Of a stretch of DNA of 64,000 nucleotides, positions 482 to 47,739 are shown piece after piece. The notes under the pieces were generated by a model, which was not told the DNA's origin, did no database searches, and saw only the letters and a list, made by a program, of their open reading frames with translations. The DNA is from an uncultured Acidobacteriota bacterium (GTDB taxonomy: Bacteria > Acidobacteriota > Vicinamibacteria > Fen-336), in the NCBI GenBank assembly GCA_963697835.1, contig CAVOPG010000002.1, positions 2,243,256 through 2,307,255 on the forward strand, written 5' to 3'. Position numbers and translations under genes: made by a program. Position 1 is the first letter of the stretch; every line of letters starts with the position of its first letter.

Positions 482-1981
482 ATGCCCAAGTCCGGCTCCG
501 TCAGCCGCCGCACGTTCCTGGAGACGAGCGCCACCACCGCCGCCGTGACGCTCGTCGCGCGCCACGTCCTGGGGGGGCCGCGGCACGTGCCGCCGAGCGA
601 TCGCATCAACGTCGCGTACGTCGGAACCGGCACGCAGGGTCTCCGACAGCTGATGCCCGCCTTGCAGCGACCGGACCTGCGGATCACCGCGGTCTGCGAT
701 CCCAATCGCAAGAGCGAGGACTACGTCGAGTGGTCCCGTTTCGAGCTGCGGGACAAGATCCGGGAATTCCTGGCCGATCCCGGCTGGGCCGAGGGCGCCA
801 GGGCCTGCCCCTGCGGGCGCGAGGTGGGCCGCGAGCTCGTGGACCGGCACTACGGCGCGTCCTCGGCCGGCGGCTGCCACGCGTACGCCGACTTCCGGGA
901 GCTTCTGGCGAAGGAGAAGGACCTCGACGCCGTCTACATCATGACGCCGGATCACCTCCACGCCACGGTCGCTCTCGCGGCGATGAGGGCCGGCAAGCAC
1001 GTCATCGTCCACAAGCCGCTCGGCAACGTCCTCCACGAGGCGCGCCTCGTCGTCCAGACCGCGCGCGAGACCGGCGCCGCTACGCACATGTTCTGCGCCG
1101 CCGGGAACGAGTCGACGCCGCAGATCGCCGAGTGGATCCAGGCCGGGGCGATCGGCCCCGTGCGCGAGGTGCACAACTGGTCCACTCGGCCCTTCTGGCC
1201 GCAGGGCATGACGACCCTCCCGGCCGAGTCGGTGCCGGTCCCGGACGGGCTCGACTGGGACCTCTGGCTGGGGCCCGTGCCGCACCGGCCCTATCACCCC
1301 GCCTACACGAACGCGGTCTTCCGGGGCTGGTACGACTTCGGCACCGGCGCCCTCGGCGACATGGGGCACTACAGCTTCTTCCAGATCTTCAAGATCCTGA
1401 AGCTCGGCTCGCCCCTCACCGTCGAGGCCACCCGGAGCCAGTACTGGAAGATCGACGACCTCCTCTGGAAGAAGCAGATCAACACGGTCTCCTACCCGCA
1501 GGCCTCGCTCATCCGCTGGGAGTTCCCGGAGCGGGCGGGGATGCCCCCGGTCACGCTCCACTGGTACGACGGCGGCCTGCGCCCTCCGAAGCCCCGCGAG
1601 CTGGAGGAAGACGGCGAGCCGATGCCCGAGGAGGGACTCCTCTTCGTGGGAGACCGCGGGAAGATCCTGGGTGAGTTCACCGGCCGGGACCCGCGCCTCA
1701 TCCCGAAGGCGAAGATGACGGCCTTCCAGCCTCCGCCGAAGACCCTGCCGCGCCCGGCCGAGGAGCTGGAGCAGTGGGTCCGCGCCTGCCGCGGCACCGC
1801 CCCGTCGGACGCCAGCTTCGAGAACGTGGCGGCCATCAGCGAGACGATCCTGCTGGGGACGATCGCGGTGCGCGTCGACAAGAAGCTCCGTTGGGACGCC
1901 GCGAACGCGCGCTTCGTCGACGCTCCCGAGGCCGACGCGCTCATGGCCCGCGGCGAGTACCGCGAGGGCTGGAAGCTGTAG
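482..1981 (+). CDS. Gfo/Idh/MocA family oxidoreductase with twin-arginine (TAT) signal
   Basis: ORF 464..1981. The second ATG (482) is preceded by GAGGAGG. The N-terminus SRRTFLETSATTAAVTLVA is a TAT motif, followed by the Rossmann motif INVAYVGTGTQG and a typical Gfo/Idh/MocA body. Confidence 0.9.
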   Translation: MPKSGSVSRRTFLETSATTAAVTLVARHVLGGPRHVPPSDRINVAYVGTGTQGLRQLMPALQRPDLRITAVCDPNRKSEDYVEWSRFELRDKIREFLADPGWAEGARACPCGREVGRELVDRHYGASSAGGCHAYADFRELLAKEKDLDAVYIMTPDHLHATVALAAMRAGKHVIVHKPLGNVLHEARLVVQTARETGAATHMFCAAGNESTPQIAEWIQAGAIGPVREVHNWSTRPFWPQGMTTLPAESVPVPDGLDWDLWLGPVPHRPYHPAYTNAVFRGWYDFGTGALGDMGHYSFFQIFKILKLGSPLTVEATRSQYWKIDDLLWKKQINTVSYPQASLIRWEFPERAGMPPVTLHWYDGGLRPPKPRELEEDGEPMPEEGLLFVGDRGKILGEFTGRDPRLIPKAKMTAFQPPPKTLPRPAEELEQWVRACRGTAPSDASFENVAAISETILLGTIAVRVDKKLRWDAANARFVDAPEADALMARGEYREGWKL

Positions 1982-2001
1982 TCACCCGCGAGCACCCTCT
2001 T

Positions 2002-2024
2002 GTACACCTCGGCCAAAGGTGTAC
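2002..2024. promoter_or_regulatory. Perfect 8-bp inverted repeat GTACACCT-N7-AGGTGTAC upstream of vapB (candidate TA operator, or terminator of the upstream gene)
   Basis: Read directly: gtacacct cggccaa aggtgtac. It ends 10 nt before the vapB ATG (2035) and 21 nt after the stop of the upstream gene. Confidence 0.4.
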
Positions 2025-2034
2025 GGTGAGGTGT

Positions 2035-2274
2035 ATGAGAACGAACATCGTCCTCAACGACGAGCTCGTGCGCGAGGCGGCTCGCTACGCGAAGGGCCGT
2101 TCGAAGCGCGCCCTGGTCGAGGAAGCGTTGGCGACGTTCGTGGCGGTGAAGAGCGCCGAGCGCCGGCACGCGACGTACCGCGAGCGGCTGACCCGTCTCG
2201 AGACCCGGCTGGGCGCGCTCCGCCTGCGCGAGAGCCCCTCCCGCCTGCTGCGGCACGACCGGCAGCGCTCGTGA
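2035..2274 (+). CDS. vapB: Type II antitoxin, VapB family
   Basis: MRTNIVLNDELVREAARYAKGRSKRALVEEALATFV... is a typical VapB N-terminus. ATG at 2035 follows GGTGAGG. The stop overlaps the GTG of the downstream PIN ORF (GTGA). Confidence 0.8.
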   Translation: MRTNIVLNDELVREAARYAKGRSKRALVEEALATFVAVKSAERRHATYRERLTRLETRLGALRLRESPSRLLRHDRQRS

Positions 2275-2543
2275 GATCCCTGGTACTCGACACGAGCGTC
2301 GCGATCGCCTGGTACCTGCCGGAGACCTTCCGGGCCGCGGCACGGGTCTGGCAGTCACGGCTGCTCGACGGGCGCGTCCGTCTGGTGGTGCCGGGCCTGC
2401 ACTACTGGGAGTTCGGCAATGTGCTCCGGACCTACGTCATGCGCTCCGAGCTGGAGGATCTCCCGCTGCTGACGGCCGAGCGCACCACGACACCGTGGGT
2501 GGTGAAGCTGGGCCGCCGGGTCGAGAGCGTCCTCAAGAACTGA
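2271..2543 (+). pseudogene. vapC: PIN-domain toxin (VapC), C-terminally truncated or aberrant (90 codons)
   Basis: VRSLVLDTSVAIAWYLPE...VVPGLHYWEFGNVLRTYV carries the first Asp and the Glu of the PIN acidic set. After about residue 60 the sequence (EDLPLLTAERTTTPWVVKLGRRVESVLKN*) no longer looks PIN-like. The ORF stops about 40 residues short, so the distal catalytic Asp residues are absent. Confidence 0.55.
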
Positions 2544-2672
2544 GGGCCGAGCTCCGTCGCCCGTGCCTTCTGCTCGAAACGCCTGAGACGGTCCTTGTGG
2601 GCGGCCAGAACCTCGGGGATGACTTCGACGGCGATGTTTGATCCCGACAGGTCCCGAGGTGGTAGGCTTCCG

Positions 2673-3614
2673 ATGGCCCGGTTCGGGAATGGGCGGGCCG
2701 TCGAGAGGCGCGGAGTCGTGAATAGCAGGACCGTCGCCGGCGTGCTCCTGGCGCTGCTCGTCGCGGCGTCGTCGGCAACCGCGCAAGCGCCGGCCGCGAA
2801 GGGCGCGGGGCCGCCGCTGTCGTGGCGCGTGATCGTGGGCCCGTCGATCAGCCTCCCGGCCTTCGACACTCCGTACGCATCCACGTACTCCCCACCCTTC
2901 CAGTACGTCCCCCACACGAGCACGGCGACGCAGACGATGCCGCTCGACGCGGGCACGGCACCGGGGGTACTGGTGGGTGTCGAGCGCGCGCTGGGCGGAC
3001 ACGTCGCTCTGCAGCTCTCCGCCCACTTCGGCAAGGCGAGCCTCTCGGGTGCGCCGGGCCAATACGACCTCAGCATGCAGTTCACCTCACTACAGCCGCC
3101 CTCGTACGAGCCCGTGGAGGTGAGCCTGCAGCGGTCCGAGGCTCGGCCCGAGGCCGACGGTCACCTGAAGACGCTGGCTTTGGCTTTCGACGTCGCGGCC
3201 TGGACGGACCTCGGCTCCGGGGGACGCCTCGGGTTCTCCGCCGGTCCGGCCTGGCTGCGGACGACGGGGCGGGCGGAGAGCCTCGTCTACACTGCGTACT
3301 TCATGGGCGGCCACTCGGTGGCCTTCTCCGAGGACTACCTCGTCTCGTTCGAGTTCCCCGCGAGCGCCCTCGGTCTGGACGTCGGGGGATTCGCCGAGGT
3401 GGCCCTCGGCCGGCACGCGGGCCTGCGCCTCGACGTGCGCTACACCTGGGGACCCGAGCGCGACGCCGAGGTGACGCTCCGCGAGATCGTGAACGCGGAC
3501 GAGGTCATCCGCAGCGCCGAGCTGGCCGACATCGAGAGCGGGCTTCTCCCGGCCCCGGTGCGGGTCGATCCTTCGCTCTTCCGTGCCGCCCTGGCGCTGA
3601 CCTTCCGCTTCTGA
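2673..3614 (+). CDS. Predicted outer-membrane beta-barrel protein (hypothetical)
   Basis: Signal peptide VAGVLLALLVAASSATAQA, alternating beta-strand-like sequence and a C-terminal ...ALALTFRF (terminal Phe). The alternative start is GTG 2718. Confidence 0.55.
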   Translation: MARFGNGRAVERRGVVNSRTVAGVLLALLVAASSATAQAPAAKGAGPPLSWRVIVGPSISLPAFDTPYASTYSPPFQYVPHTSTATQTMPLDAGTAPGVLVGVERALGGHVALQLSAHFGKASLSGAPGQYDLSMQFTSLQPPSYEPVEVSLQRSEARPEADGHLKTLALAFDVAAWTDLGSGGRLGFSAGPAWLRTTGRAESLVYTAYFMGGHSVAFSEDYLVSFEFPASALGLDVGGFAEVALGRHAGLRLDVRYTWGPERDAEVTLREIVNADEVIRSAELADIESGLLPAPVRVDPSLFRAALALTFRF

Positions 3615-3682: not shown

Positions 3683-6600
3683 CTACTCCATGTACCCGTT
3701 GACGTCGATGATGACGTGCCCGGTCCCCGTCGGCGCCAGGAGGACTCCGATGTCCCCGTTGGTGCCCAGCGCCACGAACCCGTTGTTCGCGCGGGTCTGT
3801 CCGGTGCTGAAGTTGACGGAAGACGTCGCCGGCGCCGGCGTCCCGCCCGGGAACAGCCTCACGTTGCCGCCGGCGGTGGAGCCGGTCACGGTGACGTTGT
3901 ACGAGATGGCCCGGGCCGTCGGCGGGATGAGGCAGTTCCCCCCCACGACCGTGAAGGTCCGTGAGACGCCCGCGACGAGAGGCGCGCCGGGTGCGGGATA
4001 CCGGGTGTCGACGAGCCGGCACGGAGCGACCGTGTAGAAGCCCATCGCGATCTGGGAGAGCGAGTCGCCGATCGTGGCGGTGGCCATCCCCGCCCCGGTG
4101 GCGATAGTGGCGTTCGTGGGCGAGGACAGGGTCAGGGTGAAGGTCTCCGCGCCCTCGACGAGCGCGTCGGAGAGAACCGCGACGTCGACCGTCCGGGTGA
4201 GGTCCCCGGGGTCGAAGGAGAGAGTGCCGGAGGTCGAGGTGTAGTCCGAGCCGGCCAGGGCCGATCCGTTCGCCGTCGCGTAGTCGACGGTGACGGTGCT
4301 GCCGGAGGCGCCGCTCAGGGTCACGGTGAAGGTCGCGTTGACGCTGCCGCTGAGCGGCTCTGTCGCCTGGACGGCGAGGGGCGAGAGCGAGATCGTCCGG
4401 GGCGAGTCGTCGTCGAGGATGATCCCGAGCGCCTTCGTGCGGGCGAGGGTCGCACCCCCGGTGGGGCCGCTCAAGCTCAACCCGAAGGACTCGTTGGCCG
4501 CCTCGACGGTGGTGTCGCCGATGACGGACACCGACACCTGCTGGGACAGCACGCCGGGGGCGAAGGTCACGAGCGTCGACAGGGTCATGAAGTCCGTCCC
4601 CGCGGTGGCCGCGGGCGGGGTGGGGCCGCCGGGGCTCGTCGCCGCGTTCACGGTGACCGGCTGGGCGTGATCGCCGCTCACGGTCAGCGTGAACGTCGCC
4701 GGCGTGGTGCCGGAGTTCCCCTCCGTCACCGAGACGTCCGCCACGTTGATCGTCAGCACGTCGTCGTCCGTGATCGTGCCGTCACCTCGGCTGTCCGAGA
4801 TCGCGGGCCCGGTGCTGTTCGACAGCACGACGGCGAAGGTCTCGTTGGCCTCGTCCAGGGTGTCGCCCACCACCGGTACCGTCACGGTCCTCGTGGTGGT
4901 CCCCGCCGTGAACGTCAACGTGCCCGACGCGGCCAGGTAGTCGACTCCCTCCGTGGCGGGGTTCGTAATCCCGGCCGCAGTCGCCCAGTTGACGGTGAAG
5001 TCGCGGTAGTAGGGCGTATTGAGGCTGAGGCTGACGGTGAAGACCGCGTCCGTCGTGCCGGCGTTGCCCTCCGGGATCGTCACGTTGTTGATGGCCACCG
5101 TGGCCGTGTCGTTGTCGTTGATCGTCCCCACCGCGTCTCCGTCGAGGATGAGCGGCCCGCTGCTGTTCGAGAGGTGGACGAGGAAGGTCTCCGCCGGCTC
5201 GTCGACGAGGTCGCTGTTGACGGTCACCGTGAACGTCCTGGTCCTGGTCCCCTGGGGGAAGCTGAGGGTGCCCGAAGTGGACACGTAGTCGACTCCGGCC
5301 GTCGCCGGCTGCGCGCCGCCGTCGGCCGTCGCGTAGTCGACGGTGAACGCGCTCTTGTTTCCGGCGACGTCCGCGGTCGACACGGTGAACGTCACGGTGG
5401 CGGTGCCGGTGTTGCCCTCGGTCGTGCTCGCGTCGGCCACCGAAACCGTCGTGTCGTCGTCCGTGATCGTGGCGAGGCCGCTGGTGTCCGAGATGCCGGG
5501 ACCGGTCGAGTTGGACAGGACCAGGGTGAAGGCCTCGTTGCTCTCGTCGAGAACGTCCCCGAGCAGCGGCACCGTGAGCGACCTCTGGGTCGCTCCCTTC
5601 GGGAAGAAGAGCGTCCCCTGGACGGCCGTGTAGTCGAGTCCGGCCTTCGCGGTGCCGTCCACGGTCGTGTAGTTGAGCGTGAAGTCGCGGTAGTAGGGGG
5701 TCGAGATGGTGATGTTGAACGTGGCGTTGGTGGTGCCCGTGTCGCCTTCGGGGATGTTGCCGGCGTCGGCAATGGCGAGCGTCGAGTTGTCGTTGTCGGT
5801 GATCTGGCCGACGCCGCGGCCGACGCCGACCCAGGCTCCCCAGTTGCTGGCCGTGTCGAGGTCGACCCAGAACTTCTCGTTGGGCTCGTCGATCGTGTCG
5901 TCGAACGTCTCGACGCTGATGGTGTGGGTCGTGTCCCCCGGGCGGAAGACGAAGAAACCCGACGTCTCGCGGTAGTCGAGGGCCGGGTCTGCCGGCGGAT
6001 CCTCTCCGCCCACGCCGCTCGTCCAGTAGAGCCGCGTCGTCTTCTCGCTCGGCTTGTTGTTGAGCGTCGCCTGGAAGACGGCGAACGGGGGATTGGTGGC
6101 GGACTCGGTCACCGTGACGCTGTTGAGCGAGACCGTCGGCCAGTAGGGCCCGTCGGGTCCGGGGACGTCCTCGTTCTCGATCCAGGCGGCCGCCGTCGGG
6201 ACCGCGATGGTCCCCTCGGTCGGGTTGAAGATCTCCACCGCGAAGGACTTGTAGTGGTCCTCGTAGGCCTGGTCGTTGACCGTCGCAATGGAGAGGGTGA
6301 CGGTCTGGGGTGTCGAACTCGTGGTCGCGGCGAACTTCACGGGCGTGTGCGTGAGCACGTGGACGCCGGGCGCGAAGGTCATCTTTTCGACGTAGTCGGT
6401 GCCCGGTTTGGCCGTGATCGCGACCGTGCGGTAGTCGACGTAGATGTCGGCGGCGTGCCCTCCGGTGCCGCTGGTCAGGGTGACCTTGAAACTGATGCTG
6501 CTTCCTTCCCGGACGCACACCGAGGTGGGGGCACCGACGCAGACCGGGGGATTCTGGGCCGGTGGGGTCACGCCATCGATCGACAGGGTGGGGGCGGCGG

Positions 6601-9600
6601 CTAGCACCACCGCTCCAGGGTCGCCTCCGCCCGTGACCTCGCGTCTCGCGGCGCCGTCGGTCGAGCGGCTCGCTGCGGCCGAAATCGCTGCGGCACCGTC
6701 AGCGCGCGGCGCCGCCGCCGCGGAGCGCGCGGCCAAAGCCGCCGGCCCGAGTTCGAGCGCCCAGGGCTCCGAGTTCGAGTAGTCGTCGGCGCCCGCGAAG
6801 ACGATCTGGCTCCCGAGGCGCGCGAGGTAGTCCGAGGTGACGCCGCTCATCACGCCCGGGAGAGGATCGGCGGCCAGGGCGATCGTCATCGTCGTCTCGT
6901 CGCAGTACCAGAGCTCGCGCCCCGTCGCGACCGTCTGCGCCGTGAAGAAGAAGCCGTTCGAGGTCACGACCCGGCACTTCGCGCGCCCGCAGGACTCGAG
7001 GTTCAGCGAGGGGTCGGAGGGCTCGGCCGGCTGGAACTCGAGCGGGGCCGAGGGGTCCTGGTTGAGGTCCTGCACCATCCGGGTGCCGCCGGTCGTGCCG
7101 TCGCTCGTCCAGAGCTCCAGGCCGTGCACTCCGTCGTCCACGACGAAGTAGAGGCGGCCGTGGATCTCCGTCAGCTGGTTGGGCCCGTTCGCCGGGTCGC
7201 AGGAGTTCGAGGGGCCGGTCGCGAACCCGCCGCCGGGGGTGAGGAAGTCCTTCACCAGCGTGACCGTGGTCCCGTCCGTCTTGTAGAGGCCGCGGCCGAC
7301 CTTCGGGTCGCAGGCCGCGAAGAACACGGTCGTCCCCACCGTGGTCAGCTCGGAGACGGCGGCGTCCCCGTTGGGCCAGAGCGTGCTGAGCGGAGTCGCG
7401 GCGTCCTGTACGCCGTTGGTCGTCCACAGCTCCTGCTTCAACCGGCCGGGCGAGGTCGACCCGGAGCGCTTCGCGATGAAGAGCGTGCTGGCGACGGCCG
7501 CCAGCTGTCCGTCGACGCGCGCCTCGATCAGCTGCCGGCCCGTGCTCGGGCTCCAGGACCACAGGTTGGTCTCCGTCGAGGCCTGTGTCTCCTTGGCGGT
7601 GAGGAAGACGCTCCCGTTGAAGGTGACGAACTCCCGCGGGTCCTTGAAGGTGTCGAGGACCGCCGTGCCGGCGGTCGTCCCGTCCGTGACCTGGAGCGTC
7701 GGGCCGTTCTGGTCGGGGCTCGCCGAGAACAGCAGCCGCTCCTCAGGCGCGACCACCCCGGCCGGGACGACGAAGAAGCGCCACGGGTTCGAGGAGACGC
7801 TGCCGGTGTAGACGTCCTTGACGAGGGTTGGGCTGGTGCCGTCGTAGGACCAGAGCTCACGGCCATAGGGCGTCCCGGGCTCGTAGGTGCCCGAAATGAG
7901 CAGCCTGCCGTTGAGGACGGCCATCTCCACGATGTCGAAGAAGGGCTCCCGGAACTCCACCGTCGTGCCGTCCGTTCTCCAGAGCCCGGTCCGGTCGGCG
8001 GTGTGGAGCGAGTCCCAGTTCTCGCTGGCGAAGAAGTAGACGTATCCCTGGTACGTGGTGAAACCGGTGGCACCCGACCCCTGGAAGTCCGCCCCGAAGT
8101 AGATCGACGACCCGGCGATCTCCGCGATCTTGCCCGCAGTGAAAGCCGTCGGGACCGTGAACAACGCGCTGATTGCGGTCCCACCCGGGCCGGTGACGGA
8201 GATCGAGCCGCTCCGGGCCGCGGCCGGAACGGTGGTCGAGATCTGGGTCGCGGAGTCGACGGTGAAGGTGGCGCTCGCGCCGGCGAACGCGACCGCGGTC
8301 ACTCCCGTGAAGTTCGTCCCGGTGATCGTCACTGCCGTGCCGGCGGCGCCGACCGTGGGAGTGAAGCTCGTGATCGTCGGCGCGGGAATCGAGGTCACGG
8401 TGAAGCTGGAGGCGCTGGTCGCCGTCCCGCCGGGTGTCGTCACGCTGATCGGCCCCGTAGTCGATGCCGGCGGCACCGTCGTCACGATCATGGTCGGGGT
8501 CACGACGGAGAAGGTGGTACTCGTCCCGTTGAACCGCACGTCGGTCGCGGCGGTGAAGCTCGTGCCCGTCAACTGCACCGAAGCGAAGTAGCCGCCGCTC
8601 GTCGGGTTGAAGCCGGTGATCGTCGGCGGATGAGCATGGCGGAGGATGACCAGCCCGTTGTTGTAGTCGGCGAGCACCACGTCGGGCCTGCCGTCGTTGT
8701 CGATGTCCCCGACGGCGAGCCCGTGCGGGTTGTAGTGGCTCGCATACGGGATCGGCTCCAGCATCTCGGAGCCGAGCACGCCGGCCGCCTGCAGGTAGAC
8801 GCCCAGCGCGGTCCAGCCGCCGTGCGCGACGAGCACGTCGGGCTTCCCGTCGCCGTTCACGTCGGCCACCTCCACCGGCTCGGGAATGTCGTAGGAGGCG
8901 TACGTCGTCGGGCTGGCGGCCAGCACTCCGCTGCCGTCCTGCGCGAAGACCGCCAGCCCGGAGCTCGGCTGGTTCCCACCGAAGCTCGCGACGAGGTCCT
9001 TACGGCCGTCGCCACTGACGTCTCCCACGGCGACTCCCGACGGCCACTCACCCCCTCCGACGGACCGGTTCACCAGTCCGCCAAGCGTGCCGTCCGCCTG
9101 CTGGTAGAGCACGGAAATGCTCACCGTCGCCATCCCCTGGTCGCTCGTCACCGCGACGTCCGCCCAGCCATCGCCATTGAGGTCGCCGACCTCGAGGTCG
9201 TCCCACCCCGCGTGGGGCGCCGAGTACACGACCGGGGTGGCGAGCGTCCCGTCGGCCTGCTGGAGGAGGACGGTCACGGTGTCGGTCCCCCAGCCCGCCC
9301 CCACGATGTCGAGGCGCCCGTCGTGGTTCAGATCGGCGATCCGGACCTTGCCCGAGTCGATCGTCGGGTGAAGAGAGACGGGATCGAGGGTCCCCGACGG
9401 GTTCTGGTAGAAGACTCCAATGGCGTCGCCGGTGTTCCCCACGACGATGTCGTTGCGTCCGTCACCGTTCAAGTCCCCGATCGCCACCGTCTCCGGCGAG
9501 CTGGTGTAGGTCCCGGCCGCGGGGTACTTGACGGGTGCGTCGAGGGTGCCGTCAGGCAGTTGTGGGAAGACGAAGAGCTTGTAGTCGTTGGCGGCGTCGA

Positions 9601-9961
9601 AGTAGAACGACGTGACCAGCACCACGTCGTTCCGCCCATCGCCGGTGACGTCGCCGATGGCCACGGCCTCGGGCCACGAACCAGTCGCGATGGCGGTGTA
9701 CGGCTCGAAGAGACCCGAGGGCCCTCCGGACAGGGACGTGAGGGCCGCGGGTGTGGCAGCGGCCGCCGCCCGTGGAGCGGCGGAGGGACGCTGCTCCAGG
9801 CCCGCTGGCCCCTTCCGGACCTCGAACCACTTCCCGCCGTCCTGCTTGAGGTACGCGCGCCCGTCGGGCTTCCGGACGCTCGACGGGGCCTGGGCGAAGC
9901 CGGGGACCGTGGCCAGGAGAAGAAGGACGGCCGGGGCGAAGATCGAGCGCCGCGAGATCAT
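3683..9961 (-). CDS. Giant secreted multidomain adhesin-like protein: FG-GAP/VCBS propeller, IPT/TIG domains, ELWxxDGT-repeat propeller, 7 Calx-beta domains and a conserved C-terminal CRLVDTR-type domain
   Basis: Uninterrupted ORF 3683..10015. ATG 9961 is preceded by GGAGGAG and gives the signal peptide MISRRSIFAPAVLLLLATVPGFAQA. FG-GAP motifs recur (IGDVTGDGRNDVV, GDLNGDGRNDIV, ADLNHDGRLDIV, GDIDNDGRPDVV). IPT-like units read TITGFNPTSG..., TITSFTPTVG.... ELWxxDGT-like repeats include GLWRTDGT, RELWSYDGT, ELWTSDGT and RELWYCDET. Calx-beta signatures include GxDY...L.F..G.T...v.V.v.gD...E..E.F and ITDDD. Confidence 0.9.
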   Translation of the reverse strand: MISRRSIFAPAVLLLLATVPGFAQAPSSVRKPDGRAYLKQDGGKWFEVRKGPAGLEQRPSAAPRAAAAATPAALTSLSGGPSGLFEPYTAIATGSWPEAVAIGDVTGDGRNDVVLVTSFYFDAANDYKLFVFPQLPDGTLDAPVKYPAAGTYTSSPETVAIGDLNGDGRNDIVVGNTGDAIGVFYQNPSGTLDPVSLHPTIDSGKVRIADLNHDGRLDIVGAGWGTDTVTVLLQQADGTLATPVVYSAPHAGWDDLEVGDLNGDGWADVAVTSDQGMATVSISVLYQQADGTLGGLVNRSVGGGEWPSGVAVGDVSGDGRKDLVASFGGNQPSSGLAVFAQDGSGVLAASPTTYASYDIPEPVEVADVNGDGKPDVLVAHGGWTALGVYLQAAGVLGSEMLEPIPYASHYNPHGLAVGDIDNDGRPDVVLADYNNGLVILRHAHPPTITGFNPTSGGYFASVQLTGTSFTAATDVRFNGTSTTFSVVTPTMIVTTVPPASTTGPISVTTPGGTATSASSFTVTSIPAPTITSFTPTVGAAGTAVTITGTNFTGVTAVAFAGASATFTVDSATQISTTVPAAARSGSISVTGPGGTAISALFTVPTAFTAGKIAEIAGSSIYFGADFQGSGATGFTTYQGYVYFFASENWDSLHTADRTGLWRTDGTTVEFREPFFDIVEMAVLNGRLLISGTYEPGTPYGRELWSYDGTSPTLVKDVYTGSVSSNPWRFFVVPAGVVAPEERLLFSASPDQNGPTLQVTDGTTAGTAVLDTFKDPREFVTFNGSVFLTAKETQASTETNLWSWSPSTGRQLIEARVDGQLAAVASTLFIAKRSGSTSPGRLKQELWTTNGVQDAATPLSTLWPNGDAAVSELTTVGTTVFFAACDPKVGRGLYKTDGTTVTLVKDFLTPGGGFATGPSNSCDPANGPNQLTEIHGRLYFVVDDGVHGLELWTSDGTTGGTRMVQDLNQDPSAPLEFQPAEPSDPSLNLESCGRAKCRVVTSNGFFFTAQTVATGRELWYCDETTMTIALAADPLPGVMSGVTSDYLARLGSQIVFAGADDYSNSEPWALELGPAALAARSAAAAPRADGAAAISAAASRSTDGAARREVTGGGDPGAVVLAAAPTLSIDGVTPPAQNPPVCVGAPTSVCVREGSSISFKVTLTSGTGGHAADIYVDYRTVAITAKPGTDYVEKMTFAPGVHVLTHTPVKFAATTSSTPQTVTLSIATVNDQAYEDHYKSFAVEIFNPTEGTIAVPTAAAWIENEDVPGPDGPYWPTVSLNSVTVTESATNPPFAVFQATLNNKPSEKTTRLYWTSGVGGEDPPADPALDYRETSGFFVFRPGDTTHTISVETFDDTIDEPNEKFWVDLDTASNWGAWVGVGRGVGQITDNDNSTLAIADAGNIPEGDTGTTNATFNITISTPYYRDFTLNYTTVDGTAKAGLDYTAVQGTLFFPKGATQRSLTVPLLGDVLDESNEAFTLVLSNSTGPGISDTSGLATITDDDTTVSVADASTTEGNTGTATVTFTVSTADVAGNKSAFTVDYATADGGAQPATAGVDYVSTSGTLSFPQGTRTRTFTVTVNSDLVDEPAETFLVHLSNSSGPLILDGDAVGTINDNDTATVAINNVTIPEGNAGTTDAVFTVSLSLNTPYYRDFTVNWATAAGITNPATEGVDYLAASGTLTFTAGTTTRTVTVPVVGDTLDEANETFAVVLSNSTGPAISDSRGDGTITDDDVLTINVADVSVTEGNSGTTPATFTLTVSGDHAQPVTVNAATSPGGPTPPAATAGTDFMTLSTLVTFAPGVLSQQVSVSVIGDTTVEAANESFGLSLSGPTGGATLARTKALGIILDDDSPRTISLSPLAVQATEPLSGSVNATFTVTLSGASGSTVTVDYATANGSALAGSDYTSTSGTLSFDPGDLTRTVDVAVLSDALVEGAETFTLTLSSPTNATIATGAGMATATIGDSLSQIAMGFYTVAPCRLVDTRYPAPGAPLVAGVSRTFTVVGGNCLIPPTARAISYNVTVTGSTAGGNVRLFPGGTPAPATSSVNFSTGQTRANNGFVALGTNGDIGVLLAPTGTGHVIIDVNGYME
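4064..6586 (-). repeat. Tandem array of 7 Calx-beta modules (111-140 aa each) inside the giant gene
   Basis: I counted module boundaries from the translation. Each module ends in DDD/DND/ENED-type acidic motifs. Modules 3 and 5 share long identical stretches (TPYYRDFT.N, VLSNSTGP.ISD). Confidence 0.8.
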
Positions 9962-10138
9962 GGACTCCTCCACAGGTGACAAGTCGGGACCTGCAAGTGG
10001 GCCAGGCCCCGCCACACCGTGTGGAGTATAGGTGCTGAACGATTCAGCGCGATCGGTTCAAGTGATCGCTCTCACATCGTTCGATTTCAATACGGATTAA
10101 GATTAGTACATCGGCATCATTGACTTCTGGTATCCGTA

Positions 10139-12219
10139 TCACCACACGTCGCAGCGCTTGTCGGACGGACGGACCATGGGCGCGCCGGCTGGGCAGCCGA
10201 AGGCCTTCTCGAACTCCGGCAGGTTCGACAGCGGGCCGATGACGCGGTACTTCCCCGTCGGGTGCGGGTCGCCCTGCACCATCAGCCGCTGGGTCTCGGG
10301 ACGGATGGCGTCGCCGCGGAACTGGCCCCAGGCGATGAAGAACTGCTGCTCCGGCGTGAAGCCGTCGACCGTGGGCGCGGGCGCCTTGCCCTCGAGCGAC
10401 TTCAGGAACGCGCGGTAGGCGATCCTGGCGCCGGCGAGGTCGCCGATCGACTCGCCGAGGACCAGCTTGCCGTTGTGGTGGATCCCGGGCTCGATCTCGT
10501 AGCTCTCGAACTGGTCGACCACGCACTGCCCCCGCGCCCGGAACTTCGCGAGGTCCGCCGCCGCCCACCAGTTCCGGAGCCGCCCCTGCGCGTCGTACTG
10601 CGCGCCCTCGTCGTCGAAGCCGTGGCTGATCTCGTGGCCGATGACCACTCCGATGGCGCCGTAGTTCACGGCGTCGGCCGCGTCCACGCTGAACGCCGGG
10701 GGCTGCAGGATCCCCGCCGGGAACACGATCTCGTTCAGCAGCGGGTTGTAGTACGCGTTCGAGGTGGGCGGCGTCATCCCCCACCGGCCGCGGTCCACCG
10801 GCTTGCCGACCTGGCTTCGTTCGTCGTCCACGTTGAACTTCCGTCCCGGCCGCCACGTTCGCCCAGTAGGCGTCGCGCCCGATGGGCACTCCGGAGTAGT
10901 CCTTCCACTTGTCGGGATAGCCGATCTTCGGGTTGAAGGTCGCGAGCTTCTCGAGGGCCTTCGCCTTCGTCTCCGGTCCCATCCACCCGAGCCCCCGGAT
11001 GGTGTCGCCCATGGCGAGGAGCAGGTTCTTCACGAGCTCCTGCATGCGGGCCTTCGCTTCCGGCGGGAAGTGCTTCTCGACGTACTTCCGGCCGAGCGCC
11101 TCGCCGAGAACGGCGTCCGTCGACTCCGCGCAGCGTTTCCAGCGGGGCTTCATCTCCTTCGCCCCGCCGAGGTACTGCTCCTCGAAGGCGAAGGCTTCCT
11201 TCACGAAGGGCGACGAGAGGTGCGGGGCGGCGGACCGGACGAGGTGCCAGCGGAGGTACGCCTTCCAGGAGGCGAGGGGCGTCTCCAGGAAGAGCCGGTC
11301 CATGGCCTTCAGGAACTCGGGTTCCTGGACATTGAGGGCGGAGCGCGGCAGCTTCGCGGCGGCGAAGTAGCCGGGCCAGTCGAAGTTCGGGGCGAGGTCC
11401 GTGAGGGCCACGAAGCTCGTCTTGTGGTCGGTGGCCCTCGGGTCGCGGCGGGCCACGTTGTCGAGCGACGCCAGGGCGAGCTGCTTCTCCATGCGGAAGA
11501 CGGCCTCCGCCGCGAGGCGCGACTCGGCACGTGCTCTTTCCGCTCAGCTCGACGAGGTGCGCCACGTGGACCCGGTACTTCTCGCGCGCCTCCTGGAAAC
11601 GGGGCTCCGTCTTCACGTAGTAGTCGCGGTCGGGCAACCCGAGGCCCGAGGCGAGAACGTCCGCGATCACCCGCGTCGGCGCGTGGTTGTCCGGCGAGGC
11701 GCGGAGTCCGAACGGCACCTGGATCGCCATCTCGTGGAAACGGCCGATCATCTTGTCGACGACGCCGATGTCGGCCAGGGCCGTCGATCTCGGCGAGCAG
11801 GGGTTTGATCGGCTCCAGGCCCAGAGCCTCGACGCGCGCCTCGTCCATGCACGCGCCGTAGTGGTCGCCGACCAGCTGCTCGACGCTCCCCTTCGGCCAG
11901 TCGGTCCGGGCCGACTGAGCCCGTCGAGGATCGCGTTCAGCTGGTCCTTGGCCGTCTCCCCCGCCGCCCAGCGGCGGCTCCAGCGCACCATCGACGGCGG
12001 GATCGGATTGGCGGCCCGCCAGGCCCCGTTCGCGAACTCGAAGAAGTCGACGCAGGGCGCGACCGATCGGTCCAGGTCGCCCGTCTCGATGCCCGTCCGG
12101 GCGGGCACGTCGGCGGCGAGGGCGGACGAAGCGAGGGCGAGGAGCGCGGCGGCGGCGAGCGGTCGCAGGGCTTCCGGCCTACTTGCCCGCTTCGAACGGC
12201 GCGGCCAGCTTCGTCCCAC
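10139..12219 (-). pseudogene. M13 family zinc metallopeptidase (PepO/endothelin-converting-enzyme-like), interrupted by 4 frame changes
   Basis: Segments lie in three frames. They are CVDFFEFANGAWRAANPIP... (frame of 12219), ARTDWPKGSVEQLVGDHYGACMDEARVEALGLEPIKPLLAEID (frame of 11848) and LADIGVVDKMIGRFHEM...YYVKTEPRFQEAREKY. They continue with MEKQLALASLDNVARRDP...YWANVAAG (frame of 11492) and GKPVDRGRWGMTPPTSNAYYNP...VIGHEISHGFDDEG...CDVW* (frame of 10831, HExxH present). The shifts fall near 11911, 11782, 11538 and 10844. Confidence 0.85.
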
Positions 12220-12699
12220 CCCAGCTCAGGCCGAAGCTGCCGCCCTTCGCCGCGGGCGCGAGGTCGATGGTGAACGTCTCGACCGGGCTGGCCAGCGCGG
12301 TCTTCGTCATGGCGACGCTGCACGACGTCCTTGGCCGGGTCGTGCTGCGTCCCCCACTGCCCCGTCTGGGAGTTGAAGACCAGCTGGAACGCGTCCCCGC
12401 TCTTCTTCAGCCAGAGGCTGTAGGCTCCCTTGGGCGACCTTCGTCGCGCCGAACGAGAGGTCGACGGGTGTCGTCAGGACCGTGGCCTGGTTCATGCCCA
12501 TCCGCCAGAACGCCCCCTCCTGCAGCTGGGACAGCATGTCCCGCCCCTTGAGCGATGGACGGCCGTAGTCGACCGTGATCGCGCCCGATCCCGCCTTCAG
12601 CTCCGCCTTGCCCCGCTCCGCCTGTGCGCTCGCGGGCACCGTGAGGACGAACGACAGCATTCCAGGGAACGTCCAGGCGAGAACCTTCTTCAGTGTCAT
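12179..12699 (-). pseudogene. DUF2911-like secreted protein, 2 frame changes
   Basis: ATG 12699 follows GGGAGG. The protein begins MTLKKVLAWTFPGMLSFVLTVPASAQA...GAFWRMGMNQATVLTTPVDLSFGATKVA. It continues in a second frame as KGAYSLWLKKSGDAFQLVFNSQTGQWGTQHDPAKDVV and in a third as MTKTALASPVETFTIDLAPAAKGGSFGLSWGGTKLAAPFEAGK* (stop 12179-12181). The shifts fall near 12434 and about 12310-12325. Confidence 0.7.
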
Positions 12700-12740
12700 G
12701 GATACCTCCCTTTCCAGCTTCCTTCGCCGGCGGCTCACTG

Positions 12741-13883
12741 TCAACGGCCCGGCATGTACAGCCCCGCGACCTCGAGGGCGAGCGCGCGCGGGTCGAGGTC
12801 GTCGCGGTTGCAGAGGACGACGACCGTGAGCCCGTCGTCGGGGAAGCGCTCGATCACCGTGCGGAAGCCGACGGTCGATCCCTGGTGCCACATTCGCGGC
12901 CGGCCGTGCCACGGGTCGAGGAACCAGCCGAACCCGTAGGACACGGGACGGCCGGGGTCGAGGTTGTCGCCGCCCGCCTCGGAAGGCCACCTGGGCTCGG
13001 ATCCGTCGAGGAGCCGCACCGGCGTGAGCGCGGGCTTCATCGCCCCCGGGGAGAGGAGCTCGCTCACCCGCAGGGCCTCGTCCCACTTCGCGAGGTCCTC
13101 GAGGTTCGAGTAGACGCCGCCGTCGCCGAGCGTCGCCGACGTGGGGCTCTGGTCGGTTTCCCGGAAGCCGGCGCCGTCCTTCGCGTGGCCGAAGGCACGG
13201 CGCTCCACCTCGTTCCTTCCCCTCGCGAACGCGAGCGTGTGGCCCATCGCCAGGGGTTTGAAGATCCGCTGGTGCAGGAAGTCGCCGAACGGCTTCCCCG
13301 AGGCGCGCGCGACGACGAGGCCCAGCACGACGTAGCCCGAGTTGCTGTAGGCCCAGCTCGTTCCCGGGGCGAAGCGGCCCTTCGTCTCGCCCCGCAGGAG
13401 AGCGAGGACCTCGTCGTCGTGGATCTGTCGGTCGGCCGTCCAGATCGGCGCCCGGCCCTTCTCGGCCGCCGCCATCAGGTCCTCGTAGTCGGGCAGGCCG
13501 GAGGTGTGGGTGAGCAGGTGGCGGATCGTGATCCCCTTGCCGTAGGCCGGGAAGGCGGGGAAGACGTCGGTGAGCGCGTCGCCGTAGCGCAGCTTGCCGT
13601 CGCGCACGAGCAGCATGACGGCCATGGCCGTGAACTGCTTGGTCACGGAAGCGAGGCGGAAGCTCGTGTCGGGATCGATGCGCTCGCGCGACCGGAGATC
13701 GCGGACGCCGTACCCACGCTCGAAGACCGTCTTCCCGTCTTGCCGCACGAGGACCGCGAGGCCGGGTTCGTCGGTGCGCACGAGCTTCTCGAGGATGCTC
13801 GCGGTCTCGGCCTCGCGGGGGTCCCGGCCGGACGACGCGAGCGCCAGGAGCGCCGAGACCGCGGACACGCCCGCGAGCGTCAA
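12741..13883 (-). CDS. Serine hydrolase, beta-lactamase/transpeptidase-like family (class C/EstB-like)
   Basis: SxxK motif SVTKQF, YSNSGY, and a typical body. The TTG start (13883) overlaps the upstream stop (TTGA) and follows AAGGAGGG. The signal-like N-terminus is LTLAGVSAVSALLALASS. Confidence 0.85.
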   Translation of the reverse strand: MTLAGVSAVSALLALASSGRDPREAETASILEKLVRTDEPGLAVLVRQDGKTVFERGYGVRDLRSRERIDPDTSFRLASVTKQFTAMAVMLLVRDGKLRYGDALTDVFPAFPAYGKGITIRHLLTHTSGLPDYEDLMAAAEKGRAPIWTADRQIHDDEVLALLRGETKGRFAPGTSWAYSNSGYVVLGLVVARASGKPFGDFLHQRIFKPLAMGHTLAFARGRNEVERRAFGHAKDGAGFRETDQSPTSATLGDGGVYSNLEDLAKWDEALRVSELLSPGAMKPALTPVRLLDGSEPRWPSEAGGDNLDPGRPVSYGFGWFLDPWHGRPRMWHQGSTVGFRTVIERFPDDGLTVVVLCNRDDLDPRALALEVAGLYMPGR

Positions 13884-14588
13884 CGGGGCTGGCCCTCCTT
13901 CGCCCGGTCGTAGATGCGCTTCAGGGCGACGCCCGGCCCGAGGCCGCCTTCCATCTTGACGTTGACGATGAGGCGGCTGCCGTCGGGGATCATCTCCCAG
14001 GTCTCGACCACGCTGCCCCCGCGGGTCTGCCTCGTTTCGACGAGGAGCTTGCCCTCCTTCCAGGAGGTCTTGAGCTCCGACGCGCCGTTGTCGGTCTTGT
14101 ACTTCTTCCCGTCGGGGTGGAGCCGGCGCATCCGGCCGAACTTCTCGTCGATGGCGATCTCGGAAGCCTCCTGCACGATCGCGAGCTCCTCGGCCGGCTC
14201 GAAGATCGAGTGCATCGACTCGCGTGCGTCGTCGTCCCCGTCCATCCCGCCGGGCGGCGGACTCATCCGGCCACCTCGACCACCCATCCCTCCGCTGCCA
14301 CCCATGCCGCCCCCACCCGGACCACCCGTCCCGCCGCCGCCAGGCCCACCGCCGGGTGCTCCACCGCCAGGCCCACCCCTGCCCGAACCGTCTCGCCCCT
14401 CCTGGCCGTCGCGCATCTTCTCGCGCGCGTCGTCGCTCAGCTCGCGGTTGTAGACCCAGCGGCCGGAGAGATCCACGGTGACGGCCGGCAGCTTTCGCCT
14501 TCTCGTCAGCCTGGGCGAGCGGTGGACCGAGGGCGACGCCGGGGGAGAACGCGAGAGCACACGAGAGGAACGCCGTTCGCATCGTCAT
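13880..14588 (-). pseudogene. Secreted hypothetical protein with Gly-rich low-complexity core, 1 frame change
   Basis: ATG 14588 follows AAGGAGGG. The signal peptide is MTMRTAFLSCALAFSPGVALGPPLAQA DEKAK. The frame then shifts at an AAA run (plus-strand ttt 14493-14495) into ORF 13880..14560 (LPAVTVDLSGRWVYNRELSDD...GGPGGGAPGGGPGGGG...KRIYDRAKEGQPR*). Confidence 0.55.
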
Positions 14589-15013
14589 CGGACCCTCCTT
14601 CGCCGCGCCCCGCGGGGAGGCCCGGCGTCGTCCTCGGTACCGAGCATTAGACGACACTCGGCGGCATCGATTCGTAAAGAGACCGCAAAACTTCGTGCTC
14701 CGGGACGAGGAGTCCGAGCGGATGGAGAAGGGAACGGGCGTCGTGAGTCAGCCAGGCGCCAGAGGGCAACGGAAAGGCCCAGACATGAGAGCGCCCCTTG
14801 AGCTGTCGGGGGGATTGACAAGTTCCTGGGAGGGTCCAAACTGGAGGGAATCGTATCGTCATAAGAAGGCGCAGGTCCGGCCCGCGCATCGCCTTCCCTC
14901 AGCCGGTGGGCCCCTGACGAGGGCTTCGCACCGGGCGTCCCCCGCGAGTGAAGAAGAGATCGGCCCGACCAGGACGACGGTGTCCCGGCCGGCAAGAGAG
15001 AAGGCGGTTGGCG

Positions 15014-15172
15014 ATGCCCGAGCTGGTGCACTCGACAGAGTGCGCGTGCCATGACTGCTGGAGCCGCCGGCTGATTCGTGACTCCGGCCCGGCCTCCGGA
15101 CCCTACTCCGCCGATGAGATGGAGGACTTCGGCCACCTTCTGACGGAGCGCAAGCTCAGCCAGGAAGAGTGA
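15014..15172 (+). CDS. Possible small Cys/His-rich protein (52 aa), hypothetical
   Basis: MPELVHSTECACHDCWSRRLIRDSGPASGPYSADEMEDFGHLLTERKLSQEE. About 43 of 51 codons end in G/C (hand count), unlike the surrounding lower-GC spacer. The RBS is weak (gagaaggcgg). I recognise no homolog. Confidence 0.25.
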   Translation: MPELVHSTECACHDCWSRRLIRDSGPASGPYSADEMEDFGHLLTERKLSQEE

Positions 15173-15195
15173 CCACTTAAGACCGAAGGCCATCC

Positions 15196-16555
15196 TCACT
15201 CTTCCACCAAGCCCGCCGTCATTTCCTCCGAGGGCTCACCTCCGGCCATTGCCTGGGCCACGATCAGGCGGCGCGCCTCCACCCTGATCTTGGGCAAGCG
15301 TCAGCCCGAACCAGACGGCACCTCCCAGGCACGCCACGGCCCCCATGGCAACCGTGAGGGGTGCGCCCAGCCGGTGAGCCAGCGCTCCTCCCATCAACGC
15401 TCCGAACGGCGCCATCCCCATGAACATCATCGAGTACACGGACATCACCCGGCCGCGCAGGTGGTCCGGCACCATGGTCTGGATCAGCGTGTTGGACGAC
15501 GCCATCTGCAGCATCATGCAGAACCCCGCGGGCACCAGAAGCGCCGTGGAGACCCAGAAGCTGCGCGAGAACGCGAAGAGGACCAGCGCGGCCCCGAACC
15601 CACCACACGAGTACGCCACCCACCGGCCCAGTCCACGCACGCCGGTCCGCGAGGCCAACGTGAGCGCAGCCAGCAGCGCCCCCACGCCGGTGGCGCTCAT
15701 CAGGATCCCCAGGCCGCGGGCTCCGCCGTGCAGGATCCGGTCAGCGAAGAGCGGCATGAGCACCGTGTAGGGCATGGCCACCAGGCTGACGAGCCCGAGA
15801 AGGAGCAGAATCGCCCGGATCGGACGCGTATGCCGCACGAAGCGGAAGCCCTCGACGATCTGCGTCAGTGGCGAGCCGGAGGGCGGGCTTCTGGAAGGGA
15901 CGCGGCACTCGCATCATCGTCAGCCCGACGATCACCGCGATGTAGCTGACGGCGTTCGCGAAGAAGCACCATCCTTCACCGATCATCGCCACCAGGATTC
16001 CGGCGACCGCGGGCCCGACGATTCGCGCCCCATTGAACATGGAGGAATTCAGGGCGATGGCGTTCATCAGGTCTTCCTTGCCGACCATGTCGACGAGGAA
16101 GGCCTGTCTGGCCGGGATGTCGAACGCATTCGCCACGCCGAGGGACGCCGCCAGCACCAGGATGTGCCACACCTGCACCTTCCCGGAGAGCGTCAACGCC
16201 GCGAGCAGGAAGGCCAGCACCATGGAGGCCGTCTGGGTCCCGATCACGATCCGCTGCCGGTCGTAGCGGTCGGCCACCGTCCCGCCCAGTGGAGCCACCA
16301 GGAAGACCGGGATCTGGCTCGACGAACCCCACCGTGCCCAGCAAGCAGCGAAGAGCCGGTGAGCCGGTAGACCAGCCAGGACAGCGCCACGGTCTGCATC
16401 CACGTGCCGGTCACGGAGATGAGCTGTCCGCCGAAGAAGAGCTGGAAGTTGCGGTGCTTCAGGGCGCGCAGGGTCGTCGGCAGCCCGCCACCGCCCGGTC
16501 CGCCCGGAGCGGGACGGCTGTGGAGCCCGTCTCGAGAGACGGCTGGGTTGCTCAC
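15196..16555 (-). pseudogene. MFS transporter (EntS/DUF894-like family), 4 frame changes
   Basis: The segments, in order, are LRALKHRNFQLFFGGQLISVTGTWMQTVALSWLVYRLTGSSLL, then LGTVGFVE, then QIPVFLVAPLGGTVADRYDRQRIVIGTQ...GLTMMRVPRPFQKPA. They continue with SGSPLTQIVEGFRFVRHTRPIRAILLLLGL...AVWFGLTL and then PKIRVEARRLIVAQAMAGGEPSEEMTAGLVEE* (stop 15196-15198). The shifts fall near 16343, 16319, 15882 and 15295, and each behaves as +1. Confidence 0.8.
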
Positions 16556-16578
16556 GCGCCTCGCGACGGTGACGAGCG

Positions 16579-43295: not shown

Positions 43296-43597
43296 TCAGG
43301 CCTCGATCACGATCAGGTGCTCAGGTCCTGCCCCCCGGACGGCTTTCAGGGGAATCGACCGGTCGAACGTGGCCAGCCGGCCGCCGTGGGCCCTGGCGAG
43401 CCCCAGCAGGTAGACGTCCGTGAGCTGGCGGTGGCTGACGGCCAGGCTGAAGAGCTCGGCGGCGAGAGAGAGATGTCGTCGGGCCAGAAGACGTGGTGGC
43501 CGCTGGCGCGGAAGGTCCGGAGGTGGTCGGCGACGACGTGCTCGGGATCGAAGAGGGCGACGAGGACGTTCACGTCCAATAGAGCCGGCCGTCTCAC
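43296..43597 (-). pseudogene. vapC: PIN-domain toxin (VapC) with a frame change in a (TC)n run and an apparent internal deletion
   Basis: MRRPALLDVNVLVALFDPEHVVADHLRTFRASGHHVFWPDDISL is in one frame. AAELFSLAVSHRQLTDVYLLGLARAHGGRLATFDRSIPLKAVRGAGPEHLIVIEA* is in another. The junction lies in the plus-strand gagagagaga run at 43464-43473 and behaves as +2. The reconstructed length is only about 99 aa. The segment normally found between the first Asp region and the H.FWPDD motif seems to be missing. Confidence 0.65.
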
Positions 43598-43821
43598 GGC
43601 TCGTCACGCAGCCGGTTGACGAGCTCCGGGGTCGGCTTGGGCCCTCCCGCGGGACGTCGAGGCAGCAGCGGGACGCCGTTGCGCACGCGAAACCGGCGCC
43701 TCGGCTCGAGCGCCTTCCGGGCCAGCTCCGAAATCACCCTCCCGGCGGTCGTGCCCCGGTTGGCCGCGAGGTCCTTCGCCGCCTGCAGGATGTCGTCGTC
43801 GATCTCGAGGGTGGTCCTCAT
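43594..43821 (-). CDS. vapB: Type II antitoxin (VapB-like)
   Basis: MRTTLEIDDDILQAAKDLAANRGTTAGRVISELARKALEP... The stop overlaps the toxin ATG by 4 nt. Confidence 0.7.
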   Translation of the reverse strand: MRTTLEIDDDILQAAKDLAANRGTTAGRVISELARKALEPRRRFRVRNGVPLLPRRPAGGPKPTPELVNRLRDEP

Positions 43822-43891
43822 TGTCGTATCATCTCGCATCACGCATCCGGGGGCACCGGGATAGAATGGGTTTCTCGTTCCCGGAGAGCCC

Positions 43892-45080
43892 ATGCCCATC
43901 TACCACCAGCTGGGGCGCGTGCCCCGCAAGCGCCACGTCGCCTTCCGCAAGGACGACGGCTCGCTCCACTACGAGGAGCTCGTCGGCAACCAGGGCTTCA
44001 CCGGACCCTCGTCGCTCCTCTACCACCTGCGCCTGCCCACCGCGGTCACGAGCGTTCGCCCGATCCGGGGCCTCGGCTGGGTGGCGGAAGCCGGAGCGCG
44101 TGGTGCGCCACCGCCACTTCCGCACCTCCGGCCTCGCGACCGGGCCGAGCCCGGTCCTCGACCGCGTGCCGCTCCTCTTCAACGCGGACGTCGCGATCTC
44201 GATGGCGCGCCCGCGGAAGGAGGACGCCTTCTTCTACCGCAACGGCCAGGGCGACGAGGTCGTGTTCGTGGTGGAGGGCGAAGGGGTCGCTCGAGTCGCC
44301 CTTCGGCGACCTCGCCTACCGGCCCGGCGACTACGTCGTCATCCCGCGCGGGATCCTGCACCGGTGGCGCCTGGGCCCGGGACCCACGCGCGCTCCTCGT
44401 CATCGAGAGCGCCGGCTACGTCCGCACGCCGACGCGCTACCGCAACGAGCACGGCCAGCTCACCGAGATGGCGCCCTTCTCCGAGCGCGACATCCGCCGG
44501 CCGGAGCGCCTCGTGACGCACGACGAGACCGGCGAGTTCCCGATCGTGGTGAAGAGCGGCAACCGCCTCGTGGAGATGGTGATGCCGCACCACCCCTTCG
44601 ACGTCGTGGGCTGGGACGGCTACTACTACCCCTGGGCCTTCAGCATCCACGACTTCGAGCCGCGCGTCGGCCGCGTGCACCTGCCGCCGCCGGTGCACCA
44701 GACCTTCGAGGGCGAGGGCTTCGTCGTCTGCTCGTTCTGCCCGCGGCCCTACGACTTCGAGCCCGAGGCGGTCTCGGCGCCCTACAGCCACCAGAACGTG
44801 ATGTCCGACGAGGTGCTCTTCTACGCGAACGCCGAGTTCATGAGCCGCAAGGGCATCGAGCTCGGCTCGATCACGCTCCACCCCGACGGGTTGCCGCACG
44901 GCCCGCAGCCGGGCAAGACCGAGGAGTCGATCGGGGCCACGAGCACGAACGAGCTCGCGGTGATGGTCGACACCTTCCGGCCCCTGCTCGTGAGCCGCGA
45001 GGCGCTCGCGATCGAGGACGCCTGCGTACCAGCTCTCCTGGCTCGATCCGCAGCCCGGCGAGCTGCCGGGCGGAGAGTGA
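43892..45080 (+). pseudogene. hmgA: Homogentisate 1,2-dioxygenase (short cupin-type), 4 frame changes
   Basis: MPIYHQLGRVPRKRHVAFRKDDGSLHYEELVGNQGFTGPSSLLYHLRLPTAV is in the frame of 43892. ERVVRHRHFRTSGLATGPSPVLDRVPLLFNADVAISMARPRKEDAFFYRNGQGDEVVFVVEGEG is in the frame of 43821. SLESPFGDLAYRPGDYVVIPRGILHRWRLGP is in the frame of 43420. The protein then returns to DPRALLVIESAGYVRTP...PHHPFDVVGWDGYYYPWAFSIHDFEP...APYSHQNVMSDEVLFY...LHPDGLPHGPQPG...AIED and ends with PAYQLSWLDPQPGELPGGE* (stop 45078-45080). The shifts fall near 44080-44100, 44285 (GGGG run), 44380 and 45020, and all behave as +1. Confidence 0.8.
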
Positions 45081-45112
45081 GCCCCGCGAGTCGCCGGACG
45101 GGCGGGCGAGAA

Positions 45113-47376: not shown

Positions 47377-47382
47377 CGCTGG

Positions 47383-47739
47383 CTAGTCCGGCGTCGCGAG
47401 GCCAAGAACGAGCCGCACGCCGTCCTCGACCTGCCGTAGCGTCGCGGGAGGCAGACGGCCGATCCTCGCCCCGAGAAAGCGCCGGTCGAGAGTCGAGATC
47501 TGCGTCACGTTGACGACTGAGGGCTCCGCCAGCCCCGTCCCGCGGGGGCGGCAGGCGACGTTGCCGGGTGCTTCGGCGAGACGCAGGTTGGTCGTCAGCG
47601 ACACGACCACGACCGTCTGGAGCTTGCTTCGGTTGAAGCTGTCGGCTTGGACCACCAGCACCGGGCGCCGTAGCGCCGGCTCCGACCCCCGCGGCTCGCC
47701 GAGGTCGGCCCACCACAGCTCACCTTTCTGGACCGTCAT
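47383..47739 (-). CDS. mazF: Type II toxin, MazF/PemK family endoribonuclease
   Basis: Intact 118 aa. MTVQKGELWWADLGEPRGSEPALRRPVLVVQADSFNRSKLQTVVVVSLTTNLR is the family signature. Confidence 0.85.
   Translation of the reverse strand: MTVQKGELWWADLGEPRGSEPALRRPVLVVQADSFNRSKLQTVVVVSLTTNLRLAEAPGNVACRPRGTGLAEPSVVNVTQISTLDRRFLGARIGRLPPATLRQVEDGVRLVLGLATPD

Follow-up and report, generated by a model that had tools for sequence, protein, structure and literature searches.

Clustered single-base frame changes in a Vicinamibacteria metagenome assembly: a probable consensus artefact

In host-restricted bacteria undergoing mass pseudogenisation (Mycobacterium leprae, Sodalis glossinidius), essential genes stay intact, stops, deletions and substitutions accumulate, and the insertions and deletions (indels) are biased towards deletion, as are bacterial mutation and pseudogene decay generally. 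Genes with +1 frameshifting of the prfB/RF2 type and phase-variable repeat genes carry a slippery or Shine-Dalgarno context or a long repeat tract, which is conserved among orthologs. In long-read metagenome-assembled genomes (MAGs), frameshift errors lower the completeness estimated by CheckM, and correction restores it (PMC8103633). Residual indel errors, or 'false pseudogenes', in long-read assemblies are treated in the proovframe preprint (10.1101/2021.08.23.457338) and in two further articles (PMC9262707, PMC8812927). Here, a cluster of frame changes was analyzed in a 64-kb stretch of DNA (hereafter, the window) from an uncultured Acidobacteriota bacterium (Vicinamibacteria, Fen-336; GenBank assembly GCA_963697835.1, contig CAVOPG010000002.1, positions 2,243,256 to 2,307,255). 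The window has a guanine-cytosine (GC) content of 70% and lies on the contig referred to as C2; the assembly comprises 6.96 Mb in 9 contigs. Within window positions 10139-16555, where the list of open reading frames (ORFs) was visibly broken, there are five minus-strand genes, encoding an M13 peptidase, a DUF2911 protein, a beta-lactamase-family protein, a Gly-rich secreted protein, and an MFS transporter. Eleven frame changes were located in this region. With high confidence, we regard them as errors in the consensus of a metagenome assembly based on long reads, in which patches were left uncorrected; the organism itself most likely has intact M13, DUF2911, Gly-rich, and MFS genes.

Frame changes at the locus and throughout the assembly

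Syntenic loci from genomes of the same genus were used as references (the intact ones being those of genomes G004, G008, and G016), and the intact orthologs were aligned with the DNA of the window by frameshift-tolerant protein-to-DNA dynamic programming. The alignment placed 11 frame changes at 10139-16555, within a few bases of the coordinates proposed in an earlier note on this DNA, and they are real in the assembled sequence. Skipping one base removed 10 of the 11, which thus behave as single-base insertions, as had been proposed. All 11 breaks were missing from the orthologs in G004, G008, and G016, and the frame reconstructions held in this comparison with orthologous loci. After bridging, the identity to orthologs was 83% for M13, 72-80% for DUF2911, 73% for the Gly-rich protein, and 88% for MFS. 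None of the four bridged proteins had in-frame stops, and full-length Pfam matches were obtained for Peptidase_M13_N (1-381/381), Peptidase_M13 (1-205/205), DUF2911 (6-144/145), and MFS_1 (2-346/347). The earlier description of the sequence between the shifts as pristine, with the HEISH motif preserved, was correct. Orthologs without breaks at these positions, and bridged proteins that are full length and conserved, point to an artefact.

Pristine sequence between shifts could also be left by real and very recent pseudogenising mutations in a dispensable gene cluster of a lineage undergoing gene decay, and a secreted peptidase and a transporter are the kind of accessory genes in which such events would fit. 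However, the shifts were accompanied neither by stops or truncations nor by a loss of conservation (identity to orthologs, 72-88%), and the distribution of the breaks over the genome also speaks against decay. This distribution was surveyed with a Viterbi gene finder based on codon usage, having explicit one-base and two-base frameshift transitions; the codon log-odds were trained on 1,224 long ORFs of the same genome with high GC content at third codon positions. In total, 7,070 frameshifts were called in 6.96 Mb (10.2 per 10 kb), 5,690 of them (80%) being of the one-extra-base (+1) type, and 48% of the genes of at least 100 amino acids contained a frameshift. The window, with 26 calls (4.1 per 10 kb), is cleaner than the genome average. 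The special significance that the earlier note had implied for the locus was accordingly not upheld: the same patchy, insertion-biased frameshifting is found genome-wide.

The only rpoB gene of the assembly was split in pieces across three frames in a profile search with curated rpoB and rpoC models, and so was the only rpoC. Independently, the Viterbi gene finder called five shifts in rpoB and two in rpoC, at the boundaries of the profile matches. The two genes lie in C6:4023-12554. Breaks that occur genome-wide irrespective of gene function, single-copy essential genes included, indicate an artefact, and repeated frameshifts in the sole rpoB and rpoC are incompatible with a viable cell, which points to error rather than biology. 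Gene decay affecting 48% of genes as well as rpoB and rpoC could not be tolerated by such a cell, and 80% insertions is the opposite of the expected deletion bias. Together with the disagreement between two assembled copies of one locus at such sites (see below), this brings gene decay close to refutation, and we consider it highly unlikely.

At the locus, the detector itself recovered 8 of the 11 known shifts, with zero extra calls in the region. When 10 random frameshift-bearing genes were bridged and scanned against Pfam, a continuous domain spanned all 12 testable shifts (nine genes, one of whose spanning matches scored below the Pfam cut-off; the tenth gene had no family). The rate in the clean state of the genome, 0.16 calls per kb, bounds false positives at approximately 16% of the calls.

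As 10 of the 11 local shifts and 80% of those in the genome are +1, and the protein continues perfectly past each of them, the extra bases might be decoded in the cell, the frame being restored by programmed +1 ribosomal frameshifting, quadruplet decoding, or transcript editing. No common motif, slippery sequence, or four-base word was found to support this, the best 5-mer being present at about 2% of the sites. At the corresponding positions of the orthologs there are no extra bases, the sites occur in patches of the chromosome rather than in particular genes, and the two assembled copies of one locus disagree at such sites. The probability of decoding was therefore judged to be vanishingly small.

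The sequence context of the sites was also compared with that of controls. Genome-wide, there was no homopolymer enrichment: runs of four or more bases were found at 12.9% of the shift sites versus 17.6% of the control sites, and homopolymers were rejected as the cause on these grounds. The statement of the earlier note that several shifts sit in short homopolymers was only weakly borne out at the locus, where the shift sites have runs of one to three bases: about five of the ten insertions extend a run of one or two bases, and none is in a long run. The ten local +1 contexts are all different. At the 5,690 +1 sites of the genome, no shared k-mer covered more than about 2-5%, and a shared motif, a methylation site, or quadruplets were rejected as causes since no k-mer covers enough of these sites. 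A phase-variable contingency locus was likewise rejected, there being no long homopolymer or simple-repeat tract at the sites. The reverse-complementary 5-mers TCGCA and TGCGA were enriched three- to fourfold within 9 nucleotides of predicted +1 shifts, at only about 3% of the sites; they could represent a minor systematic error context, e.g., one linked to base modification.

In a comparison of the assembly with itself, which depends on no reference, C2:1-5306 and C9:1-5307 are reverse complements of each other with 97% identity, i.e., one locus that was assembled twice. Between the copies, 27-68 indel events were counted, depending on the aligner. The gene at C2:2232-3618 is unshifted, whereas its C9 copy (1684-3074) has four frameshifts at inter-copy indels; conversely, the gene at C2:2-917 has four shifts that are missing from the C9 copy. 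The disagreement of the two consensus sequences at the indels argues for an artefact, and the two contigs can probably be joined at their overlapping ends. Depressed marker completeness despite few contigs argues in the same direction: CheckM completeness is 65.3% despite 9 contigs. Among the other few-contig genomes of the genus (at most 60 contigs), six of seven are also at 66-86% completeness and have split M13 homologs, while in the many-contig genomes, which are presumably short-read assemblies, the M13 orthologs are open over their full length. Most few-contig genomes of the genus thus share the quality problem.

Patchiness of the frame changes and points weighing against consensus errors

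The frame changes are clumped, with a variance-to-mean ratio of 5.2 in 5-kb bins and a median spacing of 325 bp; 86 frameshift-free gaps longer than 10 kb were observed and 0.3 were expected. Dense and clean patches were delimited by two-state Poisson segmentation, which yielded 292 dense patches making up 42% of the genome (median length, 6.5 kb; 2.2 calls per kb), the remainder having 0.16 calls per kb. Dense patches had a GC content of 72.1% versus 70.5% elsewhere. The cluster at 10139-16555 is one of these patches. Another one in the window, at 43296-47969 (strand not assigned), contains 12 predicted frame changes, and the two clusters are instances of the same phenomenon.

The earlier note had pointed out that the breaks are not spread evenly and do not resemble old pseudogenes, and this agrees with the patchiness and with the pristine sequence between shifts. 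It had also drawn attention to two unbroken genes, which differ in weight. The adhesin gene at 3683-10015 (6.3 kb, 2,110 amino acids) has no frame change where about 13 shifts would be expected (P about 2e-6); its cleanness is significant, and it marks a true patch border. The beta-lactamase-family gene (12741-13883) is indeed untouched, but with about 2.4 shifts expected in 1.14 kb, this is not significant (P of zero shifts, about 0.09).

Non-uniform error is as expected of a partly corrected long-read assembly. The errors would be mostly spurious single-base insertions, and the dense patches most likely represent consensus derived from noisy long reads only, the clean stretches being the corrected ones. 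Low coverage, failed short-read polishing, or the bridging of short-read contigs by long-read sequence could each have produced such patches. Their slight GC excess would fit a GC-dependent drop of short-read coverage in a genome of 71% GC.

Patchiness would also be obtained if strains or species had been co-assembled into a mosaic consensus, haplotypes having been mixed by the assembler or polisher so that the resulting indels belong to no single genome. Such mixing is favored by two 16S rRNA genes sharing only 83% identity and by contig-end overlaps at 90-97% identity. Even so, a mosaic is still an artefact, and thus a variant of the explanation by consensus errors rather than a true rival to it. 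Real strain variants keep the frame, so mixing alone does not account for thousands of +1 shifts, and the character of the amino-acid sequence is unchanged across the breaks. As the source of the shifts, a mosaic was regarded as very improbable.

Several points weigh against consensus errors. The profile, with 80% insertions and no homopolymer preference, is not that of textbook nanopore data. Besides indels, the C2 and C9 copies differ by 60-139 substitutions; instead of one locus, they may represent two strains or a repeat. The closest relative had approximately 90% amino-acid identity among the matches listed in a metagenome scan for M13 proteins, too distant for the 11 sites to be compared base by base. 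Finally, the verdict was reached on the assembled sequences, not on reads. Exact-protein look-ups with two intact neighboring proteins returned nothing, and no other contig of this strain is on record. That the extra bases were truly present in the sequenced DNA, through insertion-biased mutation or damage in kilobase patches of a non-viable or relic-DNA population or through some recoding as yet unknown, seems extremely improbable. Consensus errors remain the explanation in which we have high confidence.

Genes of the cluster and other features of the assembly

The four broken genes are ordinary genes widely conserved in soil Acidobacteriota; for M13, at least 588 relatives were confirmed in the metagenome scan. 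The M13 (neprilysin/PepO-type) zinc metallopeptidase gene (10139-12219, minus strand) encodes approximately 675 amino acids in five frame segments. When bridged, the protein is 83% identical to the G008 ortholog across 673 amino acids, and the matches listed above correspond to PF05649 and PF01431. Its first frame change, at 11914-11917 (11916 by both alignment and Viterbi), has one base missing or two extra and is the sole -1 type among the 11. The other three have one extra base each (given in brackets): GGC[C]CTG at 11777-11781 (alignment, 11779; Viterbi, 11782), AGC[A]CGT at 11530-11534, with no homopolymer (alignment, 11532; Viterbi, 11529), and GCC[G]GGA at 10843-10849 (alignment, 10847; Viterbi, 10841). 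The M13 ortholog of G008 (locus L012, G008:C7, 5266-7500) has a frameshift of its own near the C-terminus, and G010 and G016 likewise have split M13 homologs.

The DUF2911 secreted-protein gene (12179-12699, minus strand; approximately 172 amino acids; PF11138) has two +1 frame changes, one at about 12432 (GCC[C]AAG) and the other at 12320-12323, for which the Viterbi calls were 12432 and 12317. In the beta-lactamase-family (serine hydrolase) gene, also on the minus strand, PF00144 matched in one stretch (residues 34-366/380). In the Gly-rich secreted protein gene (13883-14588, minus strand; approximately 235 amino acids), one +1 frame change, within 14484-14496, separates the signal peptide from the mature part. 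Alignment placed it at about 14486, ambiguous over some 10 nucleotides, a range that includes the AAA run named in the earlier note as the shift site. With one base skipped, the protein is 73% identical to the G008 ortholog; no Pfam family was matched in the Pfam scan.

The MFS_3/MFS_1 transporter gene (15223-16555, minus strand; approximately 435 amino acids) has four +1 frame changes, at about 16345, 16323, 15887, and 15298. Of these, the Viterbi gene finder called the last two, at 15869 and 15292; the N-terminal pair lies too close together for it to resolve. Once bridged, the protein matches PF05977 and PF07690 over their full length and is 88% identical across 428 amino acids to the intact G016 ortholog, which is the nearest one and lies in a different neighborhood. 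In the otherwise syntenic G008 locus, the MFS gene is absent together with about 640 bp of apparently non-coding DNA (window positions 14600-16570), and the Gly-rich gene directly adjoins a beta-propeller gene. The presence or absence of the MFS gene relative to G008 may be a small insertion/deletion polymorphism.

Outside the window, a second overlap of contig ends was found between C4:1-4115 and C7:4121-1 (90% identity; 356 mismatches and 46 gaps), possibly a duplicate at strain level or a repeat at which the assembly was interrupted. Both 16S rRNA genes are full length (C2:2433629-2435199 and C5:246110-247667). The one on C5 is 96-98.8% identical to those of same-genus relatives and showed no internal indels against them; this gene is probably within a clean stretch. 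The C2 copy is 82-84% identical to all of these relatives, suggesting foreign DNA or a chimeric junction close to the 3' end of C2; the flanks of this copy have 17-26 predicted frameshifts per 5 kb. On the same contig, roughly 21 units of about 339 bp each, 90-94% identical, are arranged in tandem at C2:300246-307362, and this array is probably a giant repeat-protein gene.

Meaning for the assembly and comparison with known systems

The cluster described in the earlier note is almost certainly an accurate reading of a flawed sequence and no biological feature. What follows is a quality flag on a species-representative assembly with about one frameshift per kb, and at least 2.2 per kb in 42% of its length. 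Signals in this assembly that would be annotated as a pseudogene, a split gene, a novel short ORF, or recoding should be presumed artefacts pending a check against the reads, and equal caution is due for several further genomes of the genus with few contigs and low completeness.

With Mycobacterium leprae and Sodalis glossinidius, the assembly has in common that a large share of the genes is frameshifted. Unlike in those bacteria, rpoB and rpoC are broken here, the sequence is otherwise pristine, and insertions prevail. A one-base frame change in an otherwise intact gene is also seen in genes of the prfB/RF2 type and in phase-variable genes, but the context, repeat tract, and conservation among orthologs by which those are marked are missing here. 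Reports on nanopore MAGs stress errors in homopolymer length, whereas the ratio of insertions to deletions here is 4:1 with no homopolymer preference; also unlike in those reports, the frame changes show a strong two-state patchiness, suggesting partial short-read correction or hybrid gap-filling. In other respects, the assembly behaves as described for indel errors in long-read, and specifically nanopore, MAGs: single-base indels split otherwise perfect genes and inflate the count of broken ORFs, CheckM completeness is depressed at high contiguity, and poor coverage or polishing would aggravate the effect.

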